Assembly (NCBI GenBank): GCA_036229005.1
Contig: JAZAMN010000005.1
Location: 1-45,694 of the forward strand
Source of the DNA: Myxococcota bacterium
GTDB lineage: Bacteria > Myxococcota_A > UBA796 > CAJQPC01
Direction of reading: 5' to 3'
Length of the DNA: 45,694 nucleotides
The translations under genes were made by a program, and so were the position numbers. Of the stretch, positions 28,045 to 45,589 are shown in pieces. The notes under the pieces were generated by a model, which was given only the letters and a program-made list of their open reading frames with translations, was not told the DNA's origin and did not search any database. Within the stretch, counting starts at the first letter, position 1, and every line of letters begins with the position of its first letter.

Positions 28045-30660
28045 ATGTCATTCGAGAAGTTCACGGTCAAGGCCGTCGAGGCCATCGCAGAGTCTCAGCG
28101 CATCGCTGGGCGCATGGGCAACCCCGAGGTCCGCCCGGCCCACCTCATGCTGGCGCTGCTGGTTCAGGACGACGGCGTGGTCCCCAACATCCTGCGCCGG
28201 GTCGGCGCCGATCTGAGCGCCATCAAGGAGTCCACCGCGCAGATCGTCAACAACATCTCCAAGGTCTCCGGCTCCAACCAGGCCCGCGTCTCCCGCAGCC
28301 TGCAGGACGCCCTGGACCAGGCTGAGAAGGTCTCCAAGCGCTACAAGGACACCCACGTCCCCAGCGAGATGCTGCTGGTGGGCCTGGAGAAGGCCAAGTC
28401 CAAGACCCGGGACATGCTGCACCAGTACGGCGTGACCGAGGACCGCCTGATCTCCGCCATCGAGGCCCTGCGCGGCGGCCAGTCCGTCTCCGGCAAGGAG
28501 GCCGAGGACAACTACGAGGCCCTGTCCAAGTACACCAAGGACATGACGGCCGAGGCCTCCGAGGGCAAGCTGGACCCGGTCATCGGCCGCGACGAGGAGA
28601 TCCGCCGCACCCTGCAGGTGCTCTCCCGCCGCTCCAAGAACAACCCCGTGCTGATCGGCGAGCCCGGCGTCGGCAAGACCGCCATCGTCGAAGGCATCGC
28701 CCAGCGCATCGCCACCGGGGACGTGCCCGAGTCCCTCAAGGACAAGAAGGTGCTCTCCCTGGACCTGGCCGCCCTGCTGGCCGGCGCCAAGTACCGCGGC
28801 GAGTTCGAGGAGCGCCTCAAGTCCGTGCTCTCGGACATCGAGAACTCCAACGGCGAGATCATCCTCTTCATCGACGAGCTCCACACCATGGTCGGCGCCG
28901 GCAAGGCCGAGGGCTCCATGGACGCGGGCAACATGCTCAAGCCGGCTCTGGCCCGCGGTGAGCTGCGCTGCGTGGGCGCGACCACCCTGGACGAGTACCG
29001 CAAGCACGTGGAGAAGGACAAGGCCCTGGAGCGCCGCTTCCAGCCCGTGTTCGTGGGGGAGCCCAGCCTGGAGCAGACCATCCAGATCCTCCGCGGCATC
29101 AAGGAGAAGTACGAGGTCCACCACGGCATCAAGATCACCGACGACGCCGTGGTCGCCGCCGCCAAGCTCTCCGACCGCTACATCGCGGACCGCCAGCTCC
29201 CGGACAAGGCCATCGACCTGGTGGACGAGGCCGCCTCGCGCCTCAAGATGGAGATCGAGTCCGTCCCGGCCGAGATCGACATCCTGCAGCGCACCATCGC
29301 CGGCAAGAAGATCGAGCTCACCGCCGTCTCCAAGGAGAAGGACAAGAACGCCCAGGACCGCGCCGCCGGCCTGAGCGAGGAGATCGCCAACCTGGAGGAG
29401 GAGGCCAAGTCCAAGACCGCCAAGTGGCAGGCCGAGCGCGACGCCCTGGACAAGATCCAGTCCCTCAAGGAGAAGGCCGAGCAGATGCAGTTCCGACTGG
29501 ACGCGGCCACCCGCGCCGGCGACTACGAGACGGCCGGTCGCCTGCAGTACGGCGACATCCCGCAGACCAAGGACGACATCGCCAAGGCCCAGCAGACCCT
29601 CGCGGAGCTGCAGGCGGACGGCGGCGGCATCCTGCGCGAGCACGTCACCGACGACGACATCGCCTACGTGGTCTCCAAGTGGACGGGCGTGCCCGTCACC
29701 AAGCTCAAGCAGGGCGAGCAGGAGCGCCTGCTGCGCATGGAGGACAACCTCCACAACCGCGTGGTCGGCCAGCACGACGCCATCGTGGCCGTCTCCGACG
29801 CCGTGCGCCGCGCCCGGGCCGGCCTGCAGGACCCCGACCGCCCCATCGGCAGCTTCATCTTTCTGGGCCCCACCGGCGTCGGAAAGACGGAGCTCGCCCG
29901 CGCCCTGGCGGAGTTCCTGTTCGACGACCAGAACTCCATGGTGCGCATCGACATGTCCGAGTACATGGAGAAGCACTCCGTGGCCCGCCTCATCGGAGCG
30001 CCTCCCGGCTACGTCGGCTACGACGAGGGCGGCCAGCTCACCGAGGCCGTGCGCCGGCGCCCCTACTCCGTCGTCCTGCTGGACGAGATCGAGAAGGCCC
30101 ACCCCGACGTCTTCAACACCCTGCTCCAGGTCCTGGACGACGGCCGCCTGACCGACTCGCGCGGCCGCACCGTGGACTTCAAGAACGTGGTGCTGATCAT
30201 GACCTCGAACGTGGGCGCCCGGCACCTCTTCGAGCACAAGGACGACTTCGAGAAGGGCAAGGCCGCCGTGCTCAAGGAGCTGCAGCAGTCCTTCCGGCCC
30301 GAGTTCCTCAACCGCATCGACGACATCATCGTGTTCGACCGCCTCAAGCGCGAGGACATGAGCTCCATCCTGCGCATCCAGATGAAGCGCGTCGAGAAGC
30401 TCATGGCCGCCCGCGACCTGCAGGTCGAGCTGTCGGAGGAGGCCATCGAGGCCCTGGCCGAGGCCGGCTTCGACGAGCTCTACGGCGCCCGCCCGCTCAA
30501 GCGCGCGATCCAGAACTACCTGCTCAACCCCATGGCCAAGGCCATCGTGCGCGGGGGCTACGACCCCGGAGACACGGTCAAGGTCGGCCTGGTCAAGGAG
30601 AGCGAGGAGGACCCGGGCCGGATCAGCTTCGAGCGGGTGCCCGCACCGCCCGAGACCTGA
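28045..30660 (+). CDS. clpB: ATP-dependent chaperone ClpB
   Basis: Clp-N domain, [20 protein letters not shown], long coiled-coil M domain ending [27 protein letters not shown]. Confidence 0.97.
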
Positions 30661-31649: not shown

Positions 31650-33302
31650 ATGTCGGAGCTGAGCTGGGATGAAGAGGCCGACCTGGTCGTGGTCGGGAGC
31701 GGCGCGGGCGGGATGGCGGCGGCCTTGCGCGGCGCCGAGCAGGGCAAGCGGGTGGTCGTGCTGGAGCGGGAGGCTCGCTGGGGAGGCACCTCGGCGTGGT
31801 CTGGCGGCGGCATGTGGCTCCCCTGCAATCCGCTGATGGCGCGCGATGGCGAGCCGGACAGCCCCGAGGACGCGCTGCGCTACATGGACACCGTCATTGG
31901 GGACGTGGGCCCCGCCAGCAGCCCCGAGCGGCGCCGGGCCTTCGTGGAGACCGCCGCCCAGGTGGTGCCCTGGCTGGAGCAGCACGGCATGCCCGTCCTG
32001 CGCGCCAGCGAGTACCCCGACTACTACCCGGACAAACCCGGCGGACGCATCGGCCGGGGGGTGGAGCTCGACGTGTTCAACGAGCGCGATCTGGGCCCCT
32101 GGGCCGCCACCCTGAGCACGATGGACCCCACGCCCTACATCGCGATGACCACCAAGGACGTGTTCCTGCTGCCGCGCGCGCTGCGGACCTGGCGGGGCTT
32201 CGCCGCGACCAGCGGGGTGATGCTGCGGACCATCGGCTGGTTCCTCAGCCTCCGCAAGCCCCTGGGCATCGGCATGGCCCTGATGGCCCGGCTGACCCAG
32301 CGCGCCCTGGAGCTGGGCGTGGACCTGCGGCTCTCGAGCCCCCTGGTCGAGCTGGTGAGCCAGGACGGCGCGGTCGTCGGTGTGGTCTGCGAGCAGGGCG
32401 GCGTGCGCAAGCGAATCCGGGCGCTCCGGGGGGTGGTCCTGGCGGCAGGAGGCTTCGCGAAGAACGACACGCTGCGGCGCACCCACCAGCCCGTTGGGGG
32501 CGAGTACACCTCGGTCGCACCGGGTGACCAAGGCGAGGCCATCCTGCTGGGGACCGAGCTGGGCGCCGCCGTGGCGCTGATGGACGACGCCTGGTGGGGC
32601 GGCTCCTTCCTGGACGCCGACGGCAACCCCATGTTCTCGGTGACCGAGCGCTCCATGCCCCACTGCATCCTGGTCAACGAGGCCGGCCAGCGCTTCACCA
32701 ACGAGTCCGCCAGCTACATCGACGTCGGCCACGCGATGCTGGCGCAGAACCCCGGCGGCCCGCCGCCCCCCTTCTGGCTCATCCTGGATGCCCGCCACCG
32801 CCGCCGCTACCTCTTCGGCATGGCGCCTCCCGGCATCACCCCCAAGTCCTGGCTGGCGTCCGAGAACCTGTTCAAGGCCCCCACCCTGGACGCGCTCGCC
32901 GTCCAGTGCGGCATCAACGGCGAGGGCCTCAAGGCGACGGTCGCGCGCTTCAACACCTTCGCCGCCGTGGGCGTGGACGAGGACTTCCAGCGCGGCCGCA
33001 CCGCCTACGACAACTACTACGGCGACCCCACGGTCAAGCCGAACCCCAACCTGGGCACGATCGAGCAGGGGCCCTTCTACGCGGTGCGCATGGTCCCTGG
33101 CGACCTGGGCACCAAGGGCGGCCTGCTCACCGACGAGCACGCCCGCGTCCTGACCCCGGAGCAGCGCCCCATCCCGGGGCTCTACGCGACCGGCAACTCC
33201 ACGGCCTCGGTCATGGGCCGCACCTACCCCGGGCCCGGGAGCACACTGGGGCCCGCGGTGGTGTTCGGCATGCGCGGCGTGGACCACGCCCTGGGGCAGT
33301 AG
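31650..33302 (+). CDS. FAD-dependent oxidoreductase, 3-ketosteroid delta-1-dehydrogenase-like
   Basis: VVVGSGAGG, GGTSAWSGGGMW, YPDYY, NESASY, LGTKGGL, YPGPGSTLG. Confidence 0.88.
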   Translation: MSELSWDEEADLVVVGSGAGGMAAALRGAEQGKRVVVLEREARWGGTSAWSGGGMWLPCNPLMARDGEPDSPEDALRYMDTVIGDVGPASSPERRRAFVETAAQVVPWLEQHGMPVLRASEYPDYYPDKPGGRIGRGVELDVFNERDLGPWAATLSTMDPTPYIAMTTKDVFLLPRALRTWRGFAATSGVMLRTIGWFLSLRKPLGIGMALMARLTQRALELGVDLRLSSPLVELVSQDGAVVGVVCEQGGVRKRIRALRGVVLAAGGFAKNDTLRRTHQPVGGEYTSVAPGDQGEAILLGTELGAAVALMDDAWWGGSFLDADGNPMFSVTERSMPHCILVNEAGQRFTNESASYIDVGHAMLAQNPGGPPPPFWLILDARHRRRYLFGMAPPGITPKSWLASENLFKAPTLDALAVQCGINGEGLKATVARFNTFAAVGVDEDFQRGRTAYDNYYGDPTVKPNPNLGTIEQGPFYAVRMVPGDLGTKGGLLTDEHARVLTPEQRPIPGLYATGNSTASVMGRTYPGPGSTLGPAVVFGMRGVDHALGQ

Positions 33303-33320
33303 GGCCTGGGGCCCCGCGTT

Positions 33321-34724
33321 CTACTCGACGTACCCCATGGCCCGCAGGGCATCGAGGGTGTCTTCGTCCAGCTCGATGCTCTGCTCCTGGGCGGAGTCCA
33401 CGCGCGCCTGGGCCCGGTGCTGGTCCAGCAGGGCGGTGAGCTCCGCCTGCACGCCCGCGGGCGCCTTGCCGTACAGGTTGTGGGTCTCCCCGGGGTCCTG
33501 CTGCAGGTCGTAGAGCTCCTTGGTGGTGTTGGTCTCCATGAGCTTGTAGTGACCTCGCACGACCATCCAGTCCCCACGGTTGGCGGACTGCAGCGAGGAC
33601 CGGATGGCGTAGATCGGCCGCTCCGCGAGCCGCTCCGAGAGCAACCGCGCCCCCTTCTCCCCCTTGAGGATTGGGCTCAGGTCCACCCCGCCGCTCTGGC
33701 CCTGGGGCGGCGCGATGTCCACCACCCCCGCCAGGGTCGGGTAGAGGTCCACCAGCGAGACCGGGAACTCCGGCTGCAGGCCCGCCTGGATGCCCGGCCC
33801 CTTGGCCAGGAAGACCACGTCGTTCACCTCGCGGTAGAGGTGGGTGTTGGTGCCGTGCGAGTAGGCCCCGTGCTCCCCGAAGGCGTCGCCGTGGTCGCTG
33901 ACGACAAAGATGTAGGTGTTGTCCGGAATCTCCAGGCTCTGCACCATCTTGGCCAGCCACGCGTCGGTGTAGCGGACCTCGCTGTCGTAGGCGTTGATCA
34001 TCTCCTGCTGGGGGTCCGCGCTGTCCTGGAACCACGGAGCCCACCGGTGGTAGGGCTGGTGCGGATCCGTGAGGTGCACCCACAGAAAGAAGGGCTTGGC
34101 GCCGTGCAGCTTCTCTTTCTGGTCCTGCAGCCAGTGGGACACGCGCTCGGCGTCGACCGGGGCCTCCTTGCGGGTCTCAGGGGCCCAGTCCGTCACGTCG
34201 GTGGGGTCGGGCTCCCGGCTGCCGCTGTAGACCTCGAACTCGGGCGCGGTGTAGCGCCGGAAGGTGACAAAGCCCCGCTCAAAGCCCTGCCGCGGCATCA
34301 GCAGCAGGTTGGTGGTCACCCCGACCGTCTCGTAGCCGTTGCGCCGGAAGAGCTGCGCGATGGTGAGCAGGTCCTGGTCCATCCTGGGCAGTGGCCGGAC
34401 CTCCTGCCCCGCCTCCATGGCCCGCCGCCTCGCGGGGACGGCGCCCTCCACGACCGCGTGCTGGTTGGGGTACTGCCCGGTCATCATCGTCGCCAGCGAC
34501 GGGATGGTCCACGAAGAGGTGCTGTAGGCCCGGTCAAAGCGCGCCCCGTCCAGCGCCAGCTCCCGCATCCACGGGCTGACATCGGGGTCGGACGGGCTGA
34601 GCCCCAGGCGGTCCGGGCGCTGGGTGTCCAGGACGATGACCAGCACGTTGGGACGCTCGCCGGCCTGGACGGTCGGGGTCGCAGGGGTCAGGCAGGCGCT
34701 CAGGGTCAACCAGAGAGACAGCAA
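33321..34724 (-). CDS. sulfatase-like hydrolase/transferase lipoprotein
   Basis: VLDTQRPD, SWTIPS, DPHQPY, SDHGD, ELYDL..DPGE, LRAMGYVE. Confidence 0.9.
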   Translation of the reverse strand: MLSLWLTLSACLTPATPTVQAGERPNVLVIVLDTQRPDRLGLSPSDPDVSPWMRELALDGARFDRAYSTSSWTIPSLATMMTGQYPNQHAVVEGAVPARRRAMEAGQEVRPLPRMDQDLLTIAQLFRRNGYETVGVTTNLLLMPRQGFERGFVTFRRYTAPEFEVYSGSREPDPTDVTDWAPETRKEAPVDAERVSHWLQDQKEKLHGAKPFFLWVHLTDPHQPYHRWAPWFQDSADPQQEMINAYDSEVRYTDAWLAKMVQSLEIPDNTYIFVVSDHGDAFGEHGAYSHGTNTHLYREVNDVVFLAKGPGIQAGLQPEFPVSLVDLYPTLAGVVDIAPPQGQSGGVDLSPILKGEKGARLLSERLAERPIYAIRSSLQSANRGDWMVVRGHYKLMETNTTKELYDLQQDPGETHNLYGKAPAGVQAELTALLDQHRAQARVDSAQEQSIELDEDTLDALRAMGYVE

Positions 34725-34785
34725 GGGGGGCTCCAGTGGGGGGACGAGGGAGACCTTAGTCCAACTCCACCAGGGTTGTCACCTC

Positions 34786-35649
34786 TCAGGTTACAAAGTC
34801 CGCCAGATCCTCCATACCAGCCTCTCGGTACAGCGAGGACAGGGTGGGCCGGAGCTCCGACCAGGGCCGCTGCTCGATGGCCCAGACGTCCATCCAGTGG
34901 GCGGCGCGGTCCAGGGGGGGCTTGCTCTCGTCCTCGGCCAGGATGCGGTAGGGGTCGGCCTTGAAAGGCGCGCTCCAACCTGCACGCTCGGCGACCTCCT
35001 CGAAGGGCATACCCAGGGTCCACAGGGGCAGGGTCAGGGCGGCGCGGGCGGCCTCCCGGGCGGGCTCCGGGCGCCCCTGCTTGGCCATCAGGCGGCTCAG
35101 GAAGGCCTGGGGACGGGCCCAGCCGGGGGCCGCCGAGCCCGAGCGCTCCGCGGTGATCGCCGCGCTCATGGTGTCGCCCTTCTCCTGGTGCCCCAGGGCG
35201 AGCTCCTCGTAGAGGTGGGGCAGGCCGCCCACGCGCATCAGCAGGTAGGCCTTGAGGGGCAGGCCGGACTCCCGCACCCAGCCGGGCTGGTAGAGGACCT
35301 CGTCCCGGTTGGCCGCCGCGAGCAGGCCGCTGCTGTCTTCGCCGTCCACGTCGCGGGTGGCGAGCTCGGCGTGCAGGAGCTGGTCGATGGAGCCGGCCCA
35401 CAGGGTCATGCCCAGGGTCCCGGCGCGCACGACGGGCAGCTCCATCGAGGCGTCGGGGGTGGGCCACCGCAGCAGCCCCACCACCACGCCGCTCTTCTCC
35501 CGCGCGATGGGGATCACCAGGGGGTGCAGCTCCCCCCGTTCGGTGGGGTCCATCAGCTCGCCCTCCATGCCGGCCAGCAGGGCCAGGAAAGCGCGGAGAC
35601 GGGCGGGGACCTTGGCCCCGGCAGCGGTGAGGATGTCGGCGTGTCGCAT
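34786..35649 (-). CDS. hypothetical protein resembling plant PAB (protein in chloroplast ATPase biogenesis)
   Basis: Colinear motifs LHPLVIP, LLRWPT, MELPVV, YLL.RVG, H.EKGD..SA, PGWARP, AR.AL..P.WTLG, LD.AA, Y.EAG...A.FV, recalled from plant PAB. Start ATG 35649. Confidence 0.75.
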   Translation of the reverse strand: MRHADILTAAGAKVPARLRAFLALLAGMEGELMDPTERGELHPLVIPIAREKSGVVVGLLRWPTPDASMELPVVRAGTLGMTLWAGSIDQLLHAELATRDVDGEDSSGLLAAANRDEVLYQPGWVRESGLPLKAYLLMRVGGLPHLYEELALGHQEKGDTMSAAITAERSGSAAPGWARPQAFLSRLMAKQGRPEPAREAARAALTLPLWTLGMPFEEVAERAGWSAPFKADPYRILAEDESKPPLDRAAHWMDVWAIEQRPWSELRPTLSSLYREAGMEDLADFVT

Positions 35650-35716
35650 GCACTCCAAGTGACAGGATGCGCGCAGCGAGGCAAGTTGTTCGTCCAGCCC
35701 AAGCCCTGGAGACTCC

Positions 35717-36433
35717 GTGCTGATCGCCCTGGCCCTGCTCGCTTGCACCGGGGGCGACGCCCAAGACAGCGTCGCCGACACCACCCCCACCGAGATCACC
35801 TGGCCCAGCTCCAACCGGGTCCTGGTCTACCAGGGACACGGCGGCGTGAGCGGCGATTCGGTGGGCAACGGCGGCTGGAATCAGGTGGTCGAGGAGCTCA
35901 ACGCCGCCGGCTTCGAGGCCGAGACCCGCAGCTCCATGAGCGACGCCAGCGCCTACCGCGCGGTGTTCTTCATCTCCCCCGGACAGCAGGAGGACGTGAT
36001 CCTGGGCGAGAACACCGTGGCCTCGATCCAGGCGGGCCTGGAGGCCGGCACCCGCATGATCGTGCTGGCCGGCGAGGACAACTGCGACTCCCGCGCGATC
36101 TCCACCCTGCTCTCCGACCTGGGCGCGCCCATGTCCCTGACCGGCGAGAGCAGCAGCGTCCCGGTCCTGGCCCAGGCGCAGCCCGGGAACCAGCTCGCCA
36201 AGGGCATCGAAGAGGGCGTGCTGCTCTCCAACCCCTGCACCATCGACAAGGGCGACGCCGACGCCGAGCTCTCCGTCGACCGGGACCTGGTGGCCGTCTC
36301 CTGGCGGCCCGGCTGGGGCGGGGACGTCGTCTTGGTGGGCGACCACAGGTTCGCCGACGACACCGGCCGCTGGAAGAACCGGGACAACCTGCGCTTTGTC
36401 CTGAACCTGGCCGAGGTCGATCCCGAGTACTGA
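35717..36433 (+). CDS. lipoprotein with DUF4350/GATase-like fold
   Basis: MLIALALLAC, VLVYQGHG, GDVVLVGD..F.D, N..F..N. Confidence 0.7.
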   Translation: MLIALALLACTGGDAQDSVADTTPTEITWPSSNRVLVYQGHGGVSGDSVGNGGWNQVVEELNAAGFEAETRSSMSDASAYRAVFFISPGQQEDVILGENTVASIQAGLEAGTRMIVLAGEDNCDSRAISTLLSDLGAPMSLTGESSSVPVLAQAQPGNQLAKGIEEGVLLSNPCTIDKGDADAELSVDRDLVAVSWRPGWGGDVVLVGDHRFADDTGRWKNRDNLRFVLNLAEVDPEY

Positions 36434-36500
36434 CCTGTCGCCCTACAGGTGACAAGCCAGTCAGAGTCCGCTACCCTGAGGTGACTTCGGGGAGTGCGCT

Positions 36501-38246
36501 GTGCTCTGGACGATCCTGTTGGCTTGCGCCCAAGAGCCCCCGCCCCCGGCGGAGTGTCCGCTCTGGTACGCCGACCTGGACGCGGACGGCTTCGGTGACC
36601 CCAGCGATCCGGTCGCCTCCTGCGAGCCGGTCTCCGGCCGCGTCGACAACGGCAACGACTGCGACGACCGGGACGCCGCCCTGACCACCCAGGCCTCCTG
36701 CTCCCAGAGCTGCAGCCAGGCCCCCTTGGTGCGGGCGACCGAGCTGGAGGCCTGCGAGGGTGCGCTCATCCGGGTCAATGGACGCCTGGAGGGGCTGCCC
36801 GAGGGGGCCTGTGTTTGCGAGGTCAGTGAGCTGCTCCTGGCCGACGACCACACCGATCCGGCCTCCGTGGCCGCCCTGATCCGGGTGGACACCCTGGCCA
36901 TCTCCGAGGACGCCGGTGATCTGTCCTTCGACAACCTGGAGGAGGTCCAGACCCTCACCGCGGTGCTCTCCCAGACCGAGCTGTCCCTGGAACGGCTGCG
37001 CAGCGCCCAGGAAATCTACATCCAGGGCGCCTCCCAGCTCCGCCTCCCCGCCTTGAAGGAGGCCGAGCGCCTGCTGCTGCTGGAGCTGGGGGCCGAGTCC
37101 CTGACCCTCCCCGCCCTGGACGAGGTCGAGTACATGGTGGTGCAGGACGCCGCGCTGCGCAGCCTCAGCCTGGGCCCCCGCGCGGATGTGGTCTGGCTGC
37201 GGATCGCCAACAGCGACGCGCTGGCGCTGATCTCCGGCGGCCGTGAGATCTCGCTGATGGAGCTGCACCGCCGCCAACAGGACGTGCAGCGCACCATCAC
37301 CTCGCCCATCCGGGACCTGTGGTGGTGGGGCCAGCACCGGGCCGACGTGGTGCTCACTGCGGGCCCGGACCGGACGCTCCGCAAGGTGGGGAGCGGGACC
37401 CTCTCGGTGCAGCACAGCGAGCAATCGACCCTGTGGGTGCAGAAGGGCACGCTGATGCTCCCCACCCAGCAGGAGGCCCGCTATCTCTGGCTGGAGGGCG
37501 GTCAACTGGACGCCCCGATGCTCACCCACGTGGACACGCTCAGCGGCTCCGGCGGCTGCGATCTCCCCGCCCTGGAGACCGCCGACTACGTCTACGCCGG
37601 CAGCGACTGCGACCCGCCCAGGCTGCGCTGGGTGGGCACCCTGCGGGGAGTGGGGACGCTGAGCGCGGTGGAGTCCGTCGACACCCACAACTGGGGCAAC
37701 AACGTCGTGCTCCCCTCCCTGCGCGAGGCCACCGGCGTCGGGACCATCTGGGGCGCAGAGGGCGCGCTGCCTGAGCTCAGCCTGGTGTCCGGGGACCTGC
37801 AGTTCGACGGGGCCGTGCTGCCCAAGCTCCGCCACGTGGACGGCGAGCTGGTGGTCCTAAACGGCCTGGTCGAGCTCCCCGCCCTCCAGAGCACCGACGG
37901 CCTGCAGGTCACCGGCTGGCGCGAGGTGCGCGTCGACCAGGACTGGGACTTCCCCGTCCGCGTCGAGGGCTTCGACGGCTCCCTCCAGATGGGGCGGGTC
38001 AACGCGGCCGTCGTGGTGCGCAACCAGGGCGACTCCGCCAAGCGCGCCGCCCCGCACCTCGCCTTCGACGAGATCCACGGCAATGTGACGGTCGTGGCCA
38101 TCCTGTGGGAGACGGTGGACATCCGCATCGGAGAGCTGGACGGTGACCTCCTCTACTGCATCCCCAGGCTGACCCCGGAGCAGGCCCAGGCCTGGGTGGA
38201 CAGCATCCCCATGACCGGCACCGCCACGGACATCTGCACATGGTGA
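36501..38246 (+). CDS. array paralog 1: lipoprotein with MopE-like Asp/Cys motif and L-domain/LRR-like repeats
   Basis: LLAC, CPLWYADLDADGFG..DCDD, repeated LPxLxxV, C-cap GDLLYC...DIC. Confidence 0.85.
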   Translation: MLWTILLACAQEPPPPAECPLWYADLDADGFGDPSDPVASCEPVSGRVDNGNDCDDRDAALTTQASCSQSCSQAPLVRATELEACEGALIRVNGRLEGLPEGACVCEVSELLLADDHTDPASVAALIRVDTLAISEDAGDLSFDNLEEVQTLTAVLSQTELSLERLRSAQEIYIQGASQLRLPALKEAERLLLLELGAESLTLPALDEVEYMVVQDAALRSLSLGPRADVVWLRIANSDALALISGGREISLMELHRRQQDVQRTITSPIRDLWWWGQHRADVVLTAGPDRTLRKVGSGTLSVQHSEQSTLWVQKGTLMLPTQQEARYLWLEGGQLDAPMLTHVDTLSGSGGCDLPALETADYVYAGSDCDPPRLRWVGTLRGVGTLSAVESVDTHNWGNNVVLPSLREATGVGTIWGAEGALPELSLVSGDLQFDGAVLPKLRHVDGELVVLNGLVELPALQSTDGLQVTGWREVRVDQDWDFPVRVEGFDGSLQMGRVNAAVVVRNQGDSAKRAAPHLAFDEIHGNVTVVAILWETVDIRIGELDGDLLYCIPRLTPEQAQAWVDSIPMTGTATDICTW

Positions 38247-40024
38247 CCCTGCTGCTGCTGGCCTGCGCCCAAGAGGCCCCCTGCCCCACCTGGTACGCCG
38301 ACGTGGACGCCGACGGCTACGGCGACTCAGCGGACGGTGTCCAGAGCTGCGAGCCCCTGCCCGGCCGCATCGACAACCGCGATGACTGCGACGACCGGGA
38401 CGCCGACACGCACCCGGGCGCCGTGGATCTGCACGGCGACGGCAAGGACCAGGACTGCAACACCCAGCAGGACTGCGACGGCCTGCCGGAGATCAGCGCA
38501 GTGGAGCTGCAGGACTGCAGCCAGCGCGTGAACATCGCCGGCTCCCTGTCCGAGACGCCCCCCGGGGACTGCATCTGCCGCATCGACGGGGACCTGACGA
38601 TCAGCGAGCGACTGGATCTCTCTCAGCTCGCCTCGCTCCAACAGGTCCAGGGCTACGTGCGCATCGGCGGTGGCCGCGAAGAGGACATCAACCTCCCCCA
38701 GCTCCGGAGCGTCGGCCGATCGCTGACCGGAGAGCCCGCCGCCCCCCTCCGCCTCTCGCTCCCGCAGCTACGCCAGGCGGGCGAGATCCTGCTCAGCGGC
38801 GTGGGGGAGCTGGACCTCTCCCGCCTGGAGCATCTGGGCGACCTGCGCCTCTCCAACCACCAGTCCACACACCTCGCTCTCCCCGCCCTCCAGTCCATCG
38901 ACAGCCTGGATCTGCGGCACAGCAGCGTGCTTGAGCGCCTCTCGCTGCCCGCGGGCACCCACATTGGAGCGCTGACGATCCTGGAGATGCCCAGCCTGTC
39001 CTCGACGGTGAGTCCCAGTCCCTTCACGGTGGAGGAGGTCCGCTGGACCCAGAGCGGTGGGGAGGGGCTGCTGGTGCTGCCGAAGAGCCTCCACACCCTC
39101 GAGACCTACGGGCCCGACGCCACCCTCACGGTCCTCGGCGCCAGCGAGGTCACGCTGCTCCAACACAACGCAGGCACTCTGACCGCGCCTGACCTGGGGC
39201 GCGCGGACTCCCTGGTGAGCTACGGCGCGCTGAGCACCCCCGCGCTCACCGAGCTTGGGTCTGCGACGGTCTCGACCGGCGATAGCTGGAGCGCCCCCCT
39301 GCTGGAGGCCCTGGAGGCGGCCGACCTCTGGGCCACCGATCTGGACCTGCCGGCCCTCCGCAGCGTAGACACCGGCTTCCTGGGCGGGGCCGAGCTGCCC
39401 GCCCTGGAGCGCGTCGGCGACGTGAAGGCCTACGGCACCTACCCGGCGCTGCGAGAGGTGGCGTTTGGCCTCAGCGGCTCCCCCATCGCCCCCGCCCTGA
39501 CCCACCTGGGCGCCCCCGCGAGCCTGGATGCGCCCACCGGCAGCCTGCCCGCGCTGCGCACCGTGAGCGCGCCCCTGACCCTGAGCGGCCACGCCGAGCT
39601 CCCCGCCCTGCAGAGCGCCCAGGCCCCCATCACCCTGGACGGCGTCGCCGAGTTCTACACCCCGGCCCTCACGGACATGGCCTACGTCGAGCTGGTCGGA
39701 GAGACGGCGCCCCTGCTCCCCGACCCCTTCCCCGGCGGCCTGTTGCCCACCAACTACCAGCCGCGCACCGAGCTGCGGATCCACACCCTCCAGGGCGGCC
39801 TGAGACTGTGGGACGAGAAGCACCGGGACGCCCCTTGGATCAGCGTCGACACGGTGCAGGGCAACCTGAGCCTGCGCGCGGATTGGGACAGCCTGGACGC
39901 GCTCCGCGTGGGACGGGTCGAGGGGGACCTGTCCTACTGCCTGCGCTCTGTCCCCACCACCGAACTGGACACCTGGCTCGCAAGCATCGAGCTCGTCGGC
40001 ACCACCGAGGACACCTGCCCATGA
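38240..40024 (+). CDS. array paralog 2
   Basis: LLAC, CPTWYADVDADGYG, DCDD..HPGA..DG.DQDC, LPAL repeats, GRVEGDLSYCL...EDTC. Confidence 0.88.
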   Translation: MVTLLLLACAQEAPCPTWYADVDADGYGDSADGVQSCEPLPGRIDNRDDCDDRDADTHPGAVDLHGDGKDQDCNTQQDCDGLPEISAVELQDCSQRVNIAGSLSETPPGDCICRIDGDLTISERLDLSQLASLQQVQGYVRIGGGREEDINLPQLRSVGRSLTGEPAAPLRLSLPQLRQAGEILLSGVGELDLSRLEHLGDLRLSNHQSTHLALPALQSIDSLDLRHSSVLERLSLPAGTHIGALTILEMPSLSSTVSPSPFTVEEVRWTQSGGEGLLVLPKSLHTLETYGPDATLTVLGASEVTLLQHNAGTLTAPDLGRADSLVSYGALSTPALTELGSATVSTGDSWSAPLLEALEAADLWATDLDLPALRSVDTGFLGGAELPALERVGDVKAYGTYPALREVAFGLSGSPIAPALTHLGAPASLDAPTGSLPALRTVSAPLTLSGHAELPALQSAQAPITLDGVAEFYTPALTDMAYVELVGETAPLLPDPFPGGLLPTNYQPRTELRIHTLQGGLRLWDEKHRDAPWISVDTVQGNLSLRADWDSLDALRVGRVEGDLSYCLRSVPTTELDTWLASIELVGTTEDTCP

Positions 40025-41880
40025 ACTGGCTGCCCCTGAGCTGGCTGCTCATGCTCCCGCTGGCCTGCACGGAGCCCGAGACCTGCCCCACCTGGTACGC
40101 CGACGTGGACGCCGACGGCTACGGCGACCCATTTGACGGCGTGGTGTCCTGCGCGGAGCTGACCGGTCGGGCCACCCTCTCCGGCGACTGCAACGACCAC
40201 GACGCGGGCGTGCACCCAGCGGCCACGGATGTCCCAGGCGACGGGCGGGACCAGGACTGCGACGGCGAGGACGCCTGCGCGGGCGCCGAGCGCGTGACCC
40301 AAGCCAGCGCGTGCGGCGACCACCCCATCATCCTGACGGAGCTGGCCCGCAGCGTGCCCAGCGGCGGCTGCCTCTGCGCGAGCACCGCCGACCTGAGCGT
40401 GCCCAGCGACACCCCCGAATCGGACCTCGCGCAGCTCCACTCGGTGGCCGGCAGCCTGACCCTGTGGACGCGGGAGTCCGACCTGACCCTGCCCGTCCTG
40501 CAGCAGGTCGGCACCCTGGACGCCCGGATGGACGGCAACAGCCTGCGCGCCCCCGCCCTGCGAGAGGCCGACGCGGTGGTCCTACGCGACCCGGCCGACG
40601 TGGACCTCAGCGGGCTGGAGACCTGCCAGAGCGTGGAGATCAGCGCTCCGGCGGGCCACATCGACATGTCCTCGCTGGCGGAGACCGAGTCTGCCACCCT
40701 GTCGAGCGCCCTGAACCTCTTGGGGTGGGAGCTGCCGGTGGGAGCGCACTTCCAGCACCTCCTCCTCGCAAGCAGCAACGACAACGGCCTCCCCGGCGCC
40801 GGGCTGCGCGTCGACACCCTGGAGGTCCTGGCCCCCGTGGACCCGGCCTGGGACCTGGACTGGCAGGTGGAAACCCTGCAGGTGGGCGCCCTGGAGCGCG
40901 ACTTCGAGATCGCCGGCCTGACAGCCCTCGCCCTGCTGGAGCCCGGCAAGCTGGGTGGCCTGAGCCTGAGCCTGCCCGACCTGCAGACCCTGGAGCAGCT
41001 CACGCAGACGGAGACCGGAACCCTGGAGCTGGATGGGCTGCTCTGGCTGGGCGCCGCCTTGATCGAGGGGACCCTGCACGCCCCAGCGCTCACCGAGGCC
41101 GGCACCATCGACCTGGACTGGTACGCCACCCTGGACGCCCCCGCGCTGCGCAGCGTGGAGCACATCCGCGGCAGCTACGAGCTCGAGCTCCCCGCCCTGG
41201 AGCAGGCCGACACCCTCAGCGCCGGCCGCGGCAGCTTCCCGGAGCTCTGGCGCGTCTCCACCCTCATCGGGGGCCTGGGCTGGGAGACCACCGCCCCCAA
41301 GCTGGTCGTGGTGGAGCGCCTGCTGGTGGGCCAGGTCCACGCCCCCTCGCTGGTCTCGCTCCCCGCGGGTCAGCTCAACGCCCGGGCCGGCGACCTGGAC
41401 AGCCTGCGCTGGGTGGACGGCGAGCTGCTCCTGGAGGACCGCGCCGAGCTCCCTGCCCTGCGCGGGGTGGGCGGGGCCTTCGAGCTCAGCGACGTGCAGG
41501 CCCTGAGCGCCCCCGAGCTCCAGGCCGTGGACGCCATCCGGGTCGAGGGCAGCGCCCCCACCCAGCTCCCCGATCCAACCCCCGCCGGCGTCCGCGCCGT
41601 CGAGTTCATGCCCCGCGACCCCGTCCAGTGGGGCAGCATCCAGGGCGGCCTCTACGTCGAGTGCAGCGCCTACCGCTGCAGCCCACCGGAGCTCCAGGTC
41701 ACCCAGGTCCAGGGCAACCTGAGCGTCGAGGGCGCCTCCTGGACCACCCTGGGCAGCTTCCGCGTCGGCCGGGTCGAGGGGGATCTGTCCTACTGCCTGC
41801 CCGCCGTCCCCACCACCGAGCTCGCTGCCTGGCTGGACACCATCGAGATCCACGGCACCGTCGAGGACACCTGCAAGTGA
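40021..41880 (+). CDS. array paralog 3
   Basis: Start re-called to ATG 40021 (ATGA overlap). Same architecture. Confidence 0.88.
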   Translation: MNWLPLSWLLMLPLACTEPETCPTWYADVDADGYGDPFDGVVSCAELTGRATLSGDCNDHDAGVHPAATDVPGDGRDQDCDGEDACAGAERVTQASACGDHPIILTELARSVPSGGCLCASTADLSVPSDTPESDLAQLHSVAGSLTLWTRESDLTLPVLQQVGTLDARMDGNSLRAPALREADAVVLRDPADVDLSGLETCQSVEISAPAGHIDMSSLAETESATLSSALNLLGWELPVGAHFQHLLLASSNDNGLPGAGLRVDTLEVLAPVDPAWDLDWQVETLQVGALERDFEIAGLTALALLEPGKLGGLSLSLPDLQTLEQLTQTETGTLELDGLLWLGAALIEGTLHAPALTEAGTIDLDWYATLDAPALRSVEHIRGSYELELPALEQADTLSAGRGSFPELWRVSTLIGGLGWETTAPKLVVVERLLVGQVHAPSLVSLPAGQLNARAGDLDSLRWVDGELLLEDRAELPALRGVGGAFELSDVQALSAPELQAVDAIRVEGSAPTQLPDPTPAGVRAVEFMPRDPVQWGSIQGGLYVECSAYRCSPPELQVTQVQGNLSVEGASWTTLGSFRVGRVEGDLSYCLPAVPTTELAAWLDTIEIHGTVEDTCK

Positions 41881-43718
41881 ACCTGCTCCCCATCCTCTCG
41901 CTCCTGCTGGCCTGCGCCCAGGACCCCTGCCCCACCTGGTACACCGACCTGGACGCGGACGGCTACGGCGTCCCCGACTCCGGCGTCCGCTCCTGCGAAC
42001 CCATGGCGGGCCGCGCGGAGCAGGCCGGCGACTGCAACGATGGCGACCCCCAGGTGAACCCGGCGGCCTGGGACATCCCGGCGGACGGCCGAGACCAGGA
42101 CTGCGACGGCGAGGACCTCTGCGCGGGCGCCCTGCGGGTCACCGGAGCGACGGTCTGCGGTGACCAACCCATCGTCCTGACGCAGACCACCCACCTGGTG
42201 CCCAGCGGCGGCTGCCTCTGCGCAAGCACCGAGAGCCTGACCGTGCCCGGGGACACGCCCAACAGCGATCTGAGTCAGCTCCACTCGGTGGCGGGCGCGC
42301 TGGTGCTGTCGCTGCGCCAGGCCGACCTGGACCTGCCCGCCCTGCGCGACGTGGGCTCCCTGGAGGCCGAGATGGAGGGCTACGCGCTGAGCGCCCCCGC
42401 GCTCTCCAGCGCCGGCTCTCTGGACCTGGAGGACCCTGGCGACGTGGACCTGAGCGCTCTGGCGGAGTGCCCAGCGCTGGAGATCAACAGCCCGGTGGGC
42501 GCCCTCGACATGTCCTCGCTGGCGGAGGCCGAGTCGGTGAGGTTGATCTGGAGTCAGCAGCTACAGGGGTGGACCCTCCCGCCCGAAGCGCGCTTCGAGC
42601 AGCTCCTCATCTCCTACTCAAAGGGCGTGGGCCTGCCGGCGGATCTGCGCGTCGGGGAGCTCACCCTGAACTACCCCAACCGCCCCGAGTGGCTGCTGGA
42701 CTGGGAGGTGGACAGCCTGATTTTGATCGTCACCACCGAGGCGGAAATCGAAGGCCTCAGCCACCTCTCCCGCCTGGAGATTCGGGCCCGGGGCGCCGCG
42801 AGCCTGCCCGATCTCGTGGAGCTGCAGACGCTGGAGAACGAGGCCCCCGGGACGCTGACCCTGGACGCGCTGCAGTGGCTGGAGGCGGGCGTCTGCTTGG
42901 GCCCCCTGAGCGCCGCCAGCCTGCAGGAGCTGGGGACCCTGGACCTGGGCCGGGGCGGAAGTCTGTACGCCCCCGAGCTGCGCACCCTTCAGCAGCTCAG
43001 CGGCGCCAGCGTCGTGGACCTGCCCATGCTCCAGGAGGCCGTCACCCTGGAGATCGGCGGCGGGGACCTCCCCAGCCTGCGCAGCGTGGATGTGCTGGAG
43101 ACGCCGATTTGGGGCAGCAACGTCGCGAGCCTCCCCGAGCTGGAGAGCGTGGGCACCGTCCTCTTGGGTCGGGTCTACGCTCCGGCGCTGGAGACCCTCC
43201 CCCAGGGCAGCCTGATCGTCGAAGCGGGCGGGCTGGAGTCCCTCCGCCGGGTGGACGGCACCCTGACCCTGAGCGGCTCCGGCGAGCTCCCCGCCCTGCG
43301 CAGCGTCGGCGAGGTGCTGGAGCTGGACGCCGTCGACGCCCTGAACAGCCCGCTGCTCCTGGACCTGTCTGCCCTCAAGGTCAGCGGCGAGAGCCCGACC
43401 CAGCTCCCGGACCCCACGCCTTCGGGGGTGCGCGCCGTCCGCTTCATGCCCACGGAGCACGTGGACTGGGGGACCGTGGCCGGGGGCCTCTTGGTGGACT
43501 GCGACGGCGCGCGCTGCGGCCCCCCGGACCTCTACGTGGCGCAGGTACAGGGCGCGGCCGAGATCAACGGCAGCCACTGGACGGATCTGGGCGCCTTCGG
43601 CCTGGGGCGGGTCGAGGGGGACCTGAGCTACTGCCTGCCTGGCGTCCCCACCGCCGAGCTGGATGCCTGGCTCGACACCATCGAAATCCTCGGCACCGTC
43701 GAGGCCACCTGCCCATGA
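41877..43718 (+). CDS. array paralog 4
   Basis: Start re-called to GTG 41877 (GTGA overlap). Same architecture, closest to paralog 3. Confidence 0.88.
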   Translation: MNLLPILSLLLACAQDPCPTWYTDLDADGYGVPDSGVRSCEPMAGRAEQAGDCNDGDPQVNPAAWDIPADGRDQDCDGEDLCAGALRVTGATVCGDQPIVLTQTTHLVPSGGCLCASTESLTVPGDTPNSDLSQLHSVAGALVLSLRQADLDLPALRDVGSLEAEMEGYALSAPALSSAGSLDLEDPGDVDLSALAECPALEINSPVGALDMSSLAEAESVRLIWSQQLQGWTLPPEARFEQLLISYSKGVGLPADLRVGELTLNYPNRPEWLLDWEVDSLILIVTTEAEIEGLSHLSRLEIRARGAASLPDLVELQTLENEAPGTLTLDALQWLEAGVCLGPLSAASLQELGTLDLGRGGSLYAPELRTLQQLSGASVVDLPMLQEAVTLEIGGGDLPSLRSVDVLETPIWGSNVASLPELESVGTVLLGRVYAPALETLPQGSLIVEAGGLESLRRVDGTLTLSGSGELPALRSVGEVLELDAVDALNSPLLLDLSALKVSGESPTQLPDPTPSGVRAVRFMPTEHVDWGTVAGGLLVDCDGARCGPPDLYVAQVQGAAEINGSHWTDLGAFGLGRVEGDLSYCLPGVPTAELDAWLDTIEILGTVEATCP

Positions 43719-45589
43719 ACTGGCTGCCCATGAACCTTCCCGCCCTGCTGCTCTCCCTGCTGGCCTGCGCCTCCTCGCCAGAGGACACGGGCCCCTGCCC
43801 CACCTGGTACGCCGACGTGGACGGCGACGGCTACGGCAGCGACGACGACGCGGTGGCCTCCTGCGAGCCCCTGGTCGGCCGCAGCCTGGAGGCCGGCGAC
43901 TGCGACGACCGCGACCCCCACACCCACCCGGACGCGCCCGACCCCAGCGCGGACGGCGTCGACGCGGACTGCGACGGCCTGGACGGCTGCGAGGGCGCGG
44001 TGAGCGTGCTGGCCGAAGACCTGACGACCTGCGATGGCCAGCTCTTCGACGTGGTCGGGGACCTGATCCACCCGCCCGCGGGGGACTGCGTGTGCTCCGT
44101 CAGCGGCACGCTCACCCTCATCGACGCCGCCGACGCCGCCGAGCTGGACCGCCTGGAGAGCGTCGGCGGTCACCTGGAGGTGGACCTGCTCAGCGAGCGC
44201 CTGAGCCTGCCCCTGCTCACGCAGATCGATGTGCGTCTGCTCGTCGCCCTCCCCGACGGAAGCCTGGAGCTGCCCCGCCTCCAGTCGGTGCCCAGCGTCG
44301 ACCTGGAGGGCGTCTCCGAGGTGGAGCTCGGGGCCCTGCGCGAGTGCCTCAGCTTCACCCTCCACGACAGCAGCGTGGTGTCGCTGGAGCTGCCCGAGCT
44401 GGACCGCCTCAGCACCCTGAGCATCGAGCACAACAGCGCTCTGCAGCGCGTGGTGATGGCCCCGGACGCCAGGGTCTCCATCCTCACCGTCGAGTCCAAC
44501 GGCGCCCTGGCCCCCCTGCCCTTCCCCCAAGGCGTGCAGACCGGCTCGCTGTACTGGACTGGCGGGGGGGAGCGCTCCGAGCTGAGCGTGGGCGCCCTCG
44601 GGAGCCTGAGCCTGGGGGGCCACGGCGAGCTGGCCCTGCCCGGCCTGGCCTCCTACCCGCACACCCTCCGAATCGACGGCAGCCTGAGCGTCTCGCTGCC
44701 CGACCTGAGCTCCGTCGAGGCCCTGGACCTGCGCTACGGCGCCCTGGACGCCCCCGAACTGGTCCAGGTCGGCGCCATCGAGCTGACCAGCGCGACCCTG
44801 AGCGCGCCCCTGTTGACCCAGACCAGCGAGGTGATCCGCAGCGACGCCAACAGCCACCTGGACCTGCCGCGCCTGGAGGGCATCCACACCCTGGTGAGCC
44901 TGGGCAGCGCCGACCTGAGCAGTCTGCGCGAGGTCACCTACCTGACCTCGGGGCCAGGCACCCTGCCCGCCCTGGTCCAGGTCTACTCCCTGTACGGCGA
45001 GGGCGCGTACCCCAAGCTGGTGAGCGCCCACCAGCTCTTCGGGACCCCCAGCGCGCCGGCGCTCACCCAGGTCACCTGGGGCACCTTCACCGCGGCCCCC
45101 GGTCACCTCGACGGGCTGCGGAGCATCGACGGGAGCGTCTACCTGGAGGACCAGGCGGTGCTCCCTGGTCTGCGCAGCGCCTGGGCCCTCCACCTCGTCG
45201 ACGTCACCGACTTCCAGGTGCCCGAGAGCGCCAGCATCGGCTTCCTGGTCCTGAGCGGTCAGACCGCCACGCCCCTGCCCGACCCGCTGCCCTGGCCCCT
45301 GCGCTTTGACAACTTCGCACCCAGCGCGCCCTTCGCCCTGGGCGAGATCGACGGCGGGGTGCACCTCCACGACGGCAAGCAGCACCAGGCCCCGCAGCTC
45401 TCCTTGGGGACCATCCACGGCAACCTGGAGCTCAACGCCACCCTCTGGACGTCCCTGACCGAGCTGTCCGTGGGCCGGGTCGAGGGGGATCTGCGGCACT
45501 GCCTGCCTGCCGTCCCCACCGCCGAGCTGGAGGCCTGGCTGGACACCGTCGAGATCCACGGCGCCAGCGAGGACACCTGCGAGGACTGA
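43715..45589 (+). CDS. array paralog 5
   Basis: Start re-called to ATG 43715 (ATGA overlap, alternative 43730). Same architecture. Confidence 0.88.
   Translation: MNWLPMNLPALLLSLLACASSPEDTGPCPTWYADVDGDGYGSDDDAVASCEPLVGRSLEAGDCDDRDPHTHPDAPDPSADGVDADCDGLDGCEGAVSVLAEDLTTCDGQLFDVVGDLIHPPAGDCVCSVSGTLTLIDAADAAELDRLESVGGHLEVDLLSERLSLPLLTQIDVRLLVALPDGSLELPRLQSVPSVDLEGVSEVELGALRECLSFTLHDSSVVSLELPELDRLSTLSIEHNSALQRVVMAPDARVSILTVESNGALAPLPFPQGVQTGSLYWTGGGERSELSVGALGSLSLGGHGELALPGLASYPHTLRIDGSLSVSLPDLSSVEALDLRYGALDAPELVQVGAIELTSATLSAPLLTQTSEVIRSDANSHLDLPRLEGIHTLVSLGSADLSSLREVTYLTSGPGTLPALVQVYSLYGEGAYPKLVSAHQLFGTPSAPALTQVTWGTFTAAPGHLDGLRSIDGSVYLEDQAVLPGLRSAWALHLVDVTDFQVPESASIGFLVLSGQTATPLPDPLPWPLRFDNFAPSAPFALGEIDGGVHLHDGKQHQAPQLSLGTIHGNLELNATLWTSLTELSVGRVEGDLRHCLPAVPTAELEAWLDTVEIHGASEDTCED

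Follow-up and report, generated by a model that had tools for sequence, protein, structure and literature searches.

The window analyzed here is the first 45.7 kb (45,694 nucleotides) of a contig (JAZAMN010000005.1, C5 below) in a 6.4 Mb genome assembly of a Myxococcota bacterium (GCA_036229005.1; 74 contigs, 94% complete). On its minus strand, at 34786..35649, lies a complete coding sequence of 287 codons plus a TGA stop (34786–34788), and its product, P0001, is a bacterial member of the family of the plant protein PAB (IN CHLOROPLAST ATPASE BIOGENESIS). An earlier note, made from the sequence alone, had claimed a full-length PAB homolog here, and this is borne out by BLASTP, by Pfam families and by a match of predicted folds. 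The kind of system is a known one; the host is unexpected, and the place of the protein in the phylogeny is informative. By homology, the bacterial protein may be a cytoplasmic assembly chaperone for AtpG, the gamma subunit of the host's single F1Fo ATP synthase, a reading to which we give a probability of about 0.45.

The BLASTP comparison with plants, which the earlier note had proposed as a check, used spinach and Hibiscus proteins with the NCBI name 'protein IN CHLOROPLAST ATPASE BIOGENESIS, chloroplastic'. Significant alignments at 33% identity run over residues 6–286 of the 287, with E = 1e-45 to the spinach protein (P0358) and E = 6e-44 to that of Hibiscus (P0308). A word-indexed search found 66 relatives, all 66 with precomputed PF28502 and 62 also with PF28503, which the Atlas (Pfam 38.1) names PAB_middle and PAB_C, respectively. 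The 99%-identical cluster representative, P0002, carries both families, and a search from a Chlorokybus member reached land-plant proteins that carry both as well, many of them named PAB by NCBI. Local Pfam and NCBIfam scans of P0001 gave no family, the PAB models being newer than the local Pfam copy. In an Atlas structure search, residues 1–287 matched a Streptophyta cluster auto-named 'Cyclin delta-3' with a TM-score of 0.92 by query, both sides being predicted structures; a sequence search of solved structures with P0001 returned nothing (best E 0.73).

All nine motifs that the earlier note had read from the sequence are present in the translation in the order it gave: LHPLVIPI (residues 41–48), GLLRWPT (58–64), MELPVV (69–74), YLLMRVG (135–141), HQEKGD (154–159), PGWARP (175–180), ARAAL..PLWTLG (201–213), LDRAA (246–250) and YREAG..LADFV (274–286). 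Their counterparts occur in identical order in the spinach protein, which is named PAB-like. A comparison of 76 bacterial-type with 206 eukaryotic sequences found 29 positions where a single residue is shared by 85% or more of the sequences in each set, and no fixed differences between the two sets. The bacterial protein is like plant PAB, then, in its collinear full-length alignment, its two Pfam families, its predicted fold and its motifs. It is unlike plant PAB in having no transit peptide and no insertion of ~11 residues before LDRAA, in a bacterial host in which photosynthesis genes were not found, and in that its client and function are putative. P0001 has no N-terminal extension that could be a plastid targeting presequence, and the same is true of six bacterial genome copies. 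Such an absence is expected of a bacterial member and concerns no family-defining feature of the fold; as there is neither a signal nor a transit peptide, the protein is placed in the cytoplasm.

That there is a real 287-codon gene at 34786–35649 is confirmed by the list of open reading frames, by the translation, by the relatives and by synonymous variants. The list gives a single open frame at 34786..35814 (minus strand) of 342 aa with a TTG start; the 287-aa version of the earlier note begins within it, at the ATG at 35649, and this ATG is the correct start. The six bacterial genome copies, once trimmed, share one aligned start and are 284–297 aa long, metagenomic relatives being 283–297 aa; a GGAG at 35653–35656 (minus strand) lies 3 nt 5′ of the ATG, and the TTG start would cause an overlap with the divergent neighboring gene that starts at 35717. 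The GGAG is part of the 67-nt divergent intergenic region between the two genes (35650..35716), and a scan of 33000–36600 turned up neither a sigma-70-like promoter nor a terminator consensus. With a GC content of 0.73 overall and 0.93 at third codon positions (GC3), beside a GC3 of 0.98 in clpB, the PAB-family gene is native in composition. It is single-copy in the genome. At least three studies of seawater and marine metagenomes contain the window's sequence, and contigs of 10,320 and 10,097 bases from other marine metagenome studies span the gene and its neighbors. Within the gene, 13 of 15 strain variants from two independent marine metagenomes are synonymous and none is an indel, a mark of purifying selection. 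One homolog, in genome G117, sits in an 893-aa frame and was considered as a possible fusion protein; this was rejected, since the frame is a read-through of high-GC DNA in which the homologous part is 286 aa from an ATG.

The host is a marine member of the Myxococcota, and this fits its genome's 32 MYXO-CTERM matches above the curated cut-off, as against 0 in 14 control genomes. No Photo_RC, PsaA/PsaB or RuBisCO large-subunit genes were found in the genome at its 94% completeness, and the supposition of the earlier note that the host is probably non-photosynthetic is supported.

The AlphaFold2 (AF2) model of the full protein has a pLDDT of 95.4 and a pTM of 0.91, and three parts can be recognized in it. 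The N-terminal alpha/beta domain (residues 1–135; 35245..35649, minus strand), which reached a pLDDT of 94.3 when modeled by itself with AF2, is predicted to be SUKH-like and contains LHPLVIP and LLRWPTP, the motifs of highest conservation. In a VIA-align comparison of this domain, eight of the nine recognized SUKH-type PDB entries fell within the top 13 matches, with uniformly low Z-scores of 3.6–5.1 and a root mean square deviation (rmsd) of 3.6–5.8 over 88–105 aligned residues: 2icg (5.1), 2prv (5.1), 3d5p (4.9), the Rhs immunity protein 8bd1_B (4.4), Knr4 (4.2), FBXO3 (4.0), Tdi1 (8g0k_D, 3.8) and 2pag (3.6). HPF1 is also among the matches. The assignment of these entries to SUKH is taken partly from their titles and is partly presumed. 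In the Atlas the domain reaches TM-scores of 0.64–0.66 to SMI1_KNR4 clusters, and Foldseek against the PDB gave no match at E ≤1e-3 for either the whole model or the domain. No sequence match to SUKH was found in P0001, nor by Pfam in 45 family members. A SUKH-like N-terminal domain is likely but unproven, on the strength of predicted structure.

The middle region (residues 136–232; 34954..35244, minus strand) consists of three TPR-like helix pairs and corresponds to PAB_middle. VIA-align matches model residues ~140–232 to 3-TPR domains with Z-scores of 10–11.5. Weak Pfam TPR matches occur in the family (TPR_14 in 17 and TPR_2 in 10 of 45 members, best E 1.9e-6), and P0001 alone has no TPR match at E up to 1 in the local Pfam. 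The C-terminal helical cap (residues 233–287; 34789..34953, minus strand) includes LDRAA and the YxEAG..FV end and corresponds to PAB_C; its helices span residues 232–239, 245–259, 267–276 and 280–286 in the full model, and its conserved residues are A249, D254, W263, A271 and Y274. A Myxococcota cluster in the Atlas that has both SMI1_KNR4 and TPR_2 matches the whole protein with a TM-score of 0.52. This is only a lead toward a bacterial ancestry of the PAB architecture, drawn from comparison of models.

The phylogenetic position of the bacterial proteins was examined with IQ-TREE (LG+C20 PMSF; 66 sequences, 297 columns), and the tree is unrooted, as no outgroup was found. In it, 14 bacterial-type and two glaucophyte-type sequences are split from all insertion-bearing eukaryotes with support of 100/100; monophyly of the bacteria, at 49/1, is neither shown nor rejected. 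The claim of the earlier note that this gene bears on the origin of PAB is upheld by the grouping of the bacterial clade with glaucophyte PAB. The closest eukaryotic relative is PAB of Cyanophora paradoxa (EP00741_P024955, P0031), 48% identical to P0001. The two glaucophyte-type proteins (P0031 of Cyanophora, and P0093) are like the bacterial ones in the short form of the indel described below and in their place in the tree. Cyanophora PAB is unlike them in being nuclear-encoded in an alga and in carrying a 94-residue N-terminal extension. The extension begins MARAAF and presumably is a Phe-containing glaucophyte plastid presequence. Cyanophora PAB is a genuine algal gene and not bacterial contamination.

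The indel lies just before LDRAA, at residues 236–247 of P0001 (34909..34944, minus strand), where the bacterial protein has 12 residues and lacks the ~11-residue insertion. The length of this site is bimodal in 276 full-length family members, 73 having 11–12 residues and 203 having at least 17 (mode 23). The 73 short-form members comprise 69 without an N-terminal extension, the borderline P0028, the Cyanophora protein P0031, P0093 and P0120 from Mesotaenium endlicherianum. As the glaucophyte-type proteins share the short form, the insertion marks a subgroup (PABs of red, green and secondary-plastid lineages) and not the family. Insertion gaps count as missing data in the tree, and so the indel is an independent character that agrees with it. 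The Mesotaenium gene model, 384 aa long, is the only short-form PAB of the green lineage. It nests among Zygnematophyceae in a FastTree phylogeny, and because of this place among green relatives its short form probably comes from an exon that the gene model skips.

The earlier note had given, as something that would refute it, a family already known to be widespread in bacteria; we find that it is rare. True matches were present in six of 401 genomes sampled across the phylum, all six in one order. When all 154 genomes in this order were searched with a profile, 18 had PAB, spread over two of its seven families and seven of its 68 genera. The carriers are the source genome itself plus six of 21 genomes in its family (f1) and 11 of 49 in a second family (f2), with none in the other five families. 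In five genera (g1, g5, g18, g260 and g264), PAB is present in every genome scored. When 1.84 billion representatives were searched exhaustively with a profile, 885 matched at E ≤1e-3 and 220 at E ≤1e-30, with the best 150 of the 885 listed. The best weak match elsewhere in the phylum (E ~1e-4, in a 902-aa open reading frame at locus L007) was rejected as a family member, as it covers 31 TPR-like columns with an hhalign probability of 3%.

Within the order the gene behaves as an inherited one. Across five genome pairs, PAB identities of 67, 49, 45, 43 and 41% stand beside AtpG identities of 67, 65, 51, 51.5 and 47%, a similar divergence, and in a tree to which 17 genome copies were added the bacterial clade consists of an f1-only branch and an f2-only branch, with f2 genomes over all sub-branches of the latter. 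The split of the tree by host family and the similar divergence of the two proteins together indicate that f1 and f2 have PAB from a shared ancestor, that it was passed on vertically and that it was often lost.

How the gene came to be shared between these bacteria and plastid-bearing eukaryotes can be read in two ways, which the unrooted tree fits equally well. The ancestor of f1 and f2 may have taken it from a glaucophyte-like alga, perhaps its prey, and then kept it. This would agree with the narrow bacterial range just described (no true match in the rest of the 401 genomes), with the occurrence of PAB across glaucophyte, red, green and secondary-plastid algae and land plants, and with the fully supported group of bacteria and glaucophytes. 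Against it, the tree has neither root nor outgroup, the bacterial and eukaryotic clades are equally deep (f1 and f2 copies are 40–45% identical), the gene is fully native in composition, and the tree could just as well be rooted on the bacterial stem, with glaucophytes as the first eukaryotes to branch. We regard uptake from an alga as a serious candidate whose chances fall somewhat short of even. In the other direction, PAB would be a bacterial gene acquired by the common ancestor of the plastid-bearing eukaryotes; the first of these to split off would be the glaucophytes, and the remaining eukaryotes would share the insertion as a derived trait. In its fullest form, in which PAB arose from a SUKH+TPR protein in a marine Myxococcota-like lineage, passed to the plastid-bearing ancestor, kept its short form in glaucophytes and is an unrecognized gamma chaperone in the bacteria, we consider this scenario unlikely.

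For function, the plant protein is the guide. Plant PAB is reported in citing papers to bind the CF1 gamma subunit directly, to act downstream of Cpn60 and to help gamma enter the CF1 core (PMC5009372, PMC11124002, PMC7607909). By homology, the client of bacterial PAB would be AtpG. Newly folded gamma may be held through the TPR groove and the conserved surface of the N-terminal domain, and may then be released to the alpha3beta3 hexamer, possibly after GroEL. The 29 shared positions and the lack of any fixed difference suggest one partner common to both kinds of cell, and AtpG fits this. The host has one F1Fo operon, on contig C71, in which the sole gamma gene, at L020:1495–2376, is flanked by alpha and beta genes, and exactly one AtpG was found in each of six PAB-positive genomes examined. 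A useful parallel is given by Atp11 and Atp12 of mitochondria and plastids, which are also dedicated soluble chaperones that each hold one unassembled F1 subunit; they belong to unrelated families and have other client subunits, that of Atp12 being alpha. Arabidopsis Atp11 is reported to bind the beta subunit and, in the yeast two-hybrid tests of the same paper, did not interact with PAB (PMC7607909).

Several observations weigh against a role in assembling the bacterial ATP synthase. The atp operon is on another contig, with no neighborhood link between the PAB-family gene and the ATP synthase, and the neighbors that the gene does have are conserved within f1 only, three f2 loci sharing none of them. 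No expression evidence was seen; the only RNA run that touches the window (X9) covers 34500–34693, in the sulfatase gene, and speaks neither for nor against transcription of the PAB-family gene. F1 assembly in bacteria generally proceeds without PAB, which 136 of the 154 genomes of this very order do not have, so PAB is not essential for gamma assembly.

These last facts also favor a different client, namely that PAB serves these bacteria as a co-chaperone or TPR adaptor, for example for clients of ClpB/DnaK or GroEL, and that the ATP-synthase role is a plastid specialization. Most relatives in the order have an F1Fo enzyme and no PAB, and that enzyme seems not to need it. A clpB gene (28045–30660, plus strand, 871 aa) lies 4 kb from the PAB-family gene, an arrangement kept in f1 (the window and loci L014, L015 and L017, with ClpB 77–86% identical); it is absent from the three f2 loci and may be plain synteny. 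Residues ~142–230 superpose on the 3-TPR modules of co-chaperones with Z-scores of 9.9–10.3 and an rmsd of 2.0–3.4 (Tah1 4cgu, RPAP3 6gxz, Sti1/HOP 3upv and 1elw, Sgt2 5lyn and CHIP 7tb1). A Z-score of ~10 is ordinary for TPR repeats and the similarity is generic; unlike in those co-chaperones, binding of Hsp70/Hsp90 tails has no support for bacterial PAB. That bacteria and eukaryotes strongly conserve the same 29 positions speaks instead for a single shared partner. We find a different client doubtful, and keep the AtpG chaperone as the preferred reading.

The predicted SUKH-like domain raises the further question of an immunity function, as some of the SUKH-type entries among its top matches belong to toxin-immunity systems (8bd1_B, 8g0k_D and 2prv), and the protein could then be the immunity partner in a polymorphic toxin system and not a chaperone. 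The likeness to SUKH (SMI1/KNR4) proteins and SUKH+TPR fusions is one of modeled structure, at the TM-scores given above for the domain and for the whole protein; these proteins, mostly immunity proteins or regulators and not assembly chaperones, differ from it in showing no match at the level of sequence, with no Z-score above 5.1. The SUKH connection of bacterial PAB is for now a lead, suggested by models. Immunity genes are typically variable and multi-copy, and the PAB-family gene is single-copy, is under strong purifying selection and has a tree that follows host families; no toxin gene adjoins it in any locus examined. An immunity role is very improbable. That algal DNA was mis-binned into a bacterial assembly is already refuted: all named homologs outside metagenome bins are indeed eukaryotic and one related bin is oddly named ('Cognaticolwellia sp.'), but the gene has no N-terminal extension, no intron and the high GC3 noted above, it lies inside a long bacterial contig among clpB, sulfatase and MopE-motif genes (a near-identical cluster member is on a contig of 224,282 bases), the two independent metagenome contigs span it with its neighbors, and 18 genomes of one order carry it with a congruent tree.

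The genes around the PAB-family gene offer no functional clue. A sulfatase with a lipoprotein-like N-terminus (33321–34724, minus strand) lies 61 nt downstream on the same strand, and upstream is a divergent gene for a 238-aa lipoprotein (35717–36433, plus strand) without a Pfam or NCBIfam family. The clpB, sulfatase and lipoprotein neighborhood recurs within the genus and, in part, within family f1 (L014, L015, L017). The lipoprotein gene is kept near PAB in genera g1 and g5 and also occurs in the PAB-negative genera g6 and g255; at five loci of the latter two, no PAB remnant better than E 4 was found within 1.5 kb of it, and two g5 positive controls were equally blank since their PAB lies beyond the flank searched. 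Between a gene for a 263-aa protein and the sulfatase gene lies a gene for a 550-aa FAD_binding_2 oxidoreductase (31650–33302, plus strand, E 1e-84). In L014 and L015, from the same genus, it has no counterpart at this place and the genes for the 263-aa protein and the sulfatase are adjacent; it looks like a lineage-specific insertion. At 36501–45589 (plus strand, with overlapping alternative frames) are tandem genes for large secreted paralogs of 581, 594, 690 and ~1040 aa with lipoprotein-like signals. Three of the four, as scanned, have the MopE 'putative metal-binding motif' and the 581-aa protein has no Pfam match; they are 28–47% identical to their relatives in L014 and L015. NCBIfam gave nothing useful on ten neighboring proteins. 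The bin that contains L014 (JBLHMA010000107.1) is the one labeled 'Cognaticolwellia sp.'; its contig is syntenic with the window (clpB, sulfatase, PAB, lipoprotein) at 58–85% protein identity, and the label looks wrong.

The earlier note was correct that no atp genes are nearby: the gamma, alpha and beta genes, and a third gene with an ATP-synt_ab match, are all off contig C5. The third match is on C12 (G000:C12:10697-12822, with FliG_C), ~1.2 kb from fliG, and by its position is likely the flagellar ATPase gene fliI. Myxococcota are better known for gliding motility, and flagellar genes (FliG_C with an adjacent ATP-synt_ab gene, likely fliI) are common in this order. At one locus only (L016, 9866–14488, minus strand, in genome G397), the PAB gene has a fliI-fliH-fliG-fliF cluster 1.2 kb away, with a gene for an unknown 287-aa protein between. 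A link of PAB to the flagellar ATPase or to FliJ was considered and rejected; FliG is present in 106 of the order's 154 genomes, and the PAB-positive genera g260, g16 and g264 yielded no match to it.

PAB is called 'plant-specific' in one report (PMC5009372), and a table in a 2025 review lists it for Arabidopsis and Chlamydomonas only. We found no mention of bacterial PAB homologs in open-access PubMed Central and bioRxiv, a search that lay outside the primary PAB paper and subscription journals. Bacterial PAB proteins are already present in databases as 'hypothetical', and are matched by models in the current Pfam. For structural work and for F1 assembly in vitro, the bacterial version, which is compact, has no transit peptide and gives a model with a pLDDT of 95, is convenient. 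The grouping of bacteria with glaucophytes, together with the shared indel, provides a concrete case bearing on the source of plastid biogenesis factors said to be absent from cyanobacteria, and the short indel form is a further character that separates glaucophytes from the red and green lineages. If bacterial PAB does chaperone AtpG, then some bacteria use a dedicated assembly factor for the gamma subunit, and if in addition the gene is of bacterial origin, it would be the first chaperone dedicated to gamma to be known from a bacterium and would represent a non-cyanobacterial bacterial contribution to the biogenesis of the plastid ATP synthase.

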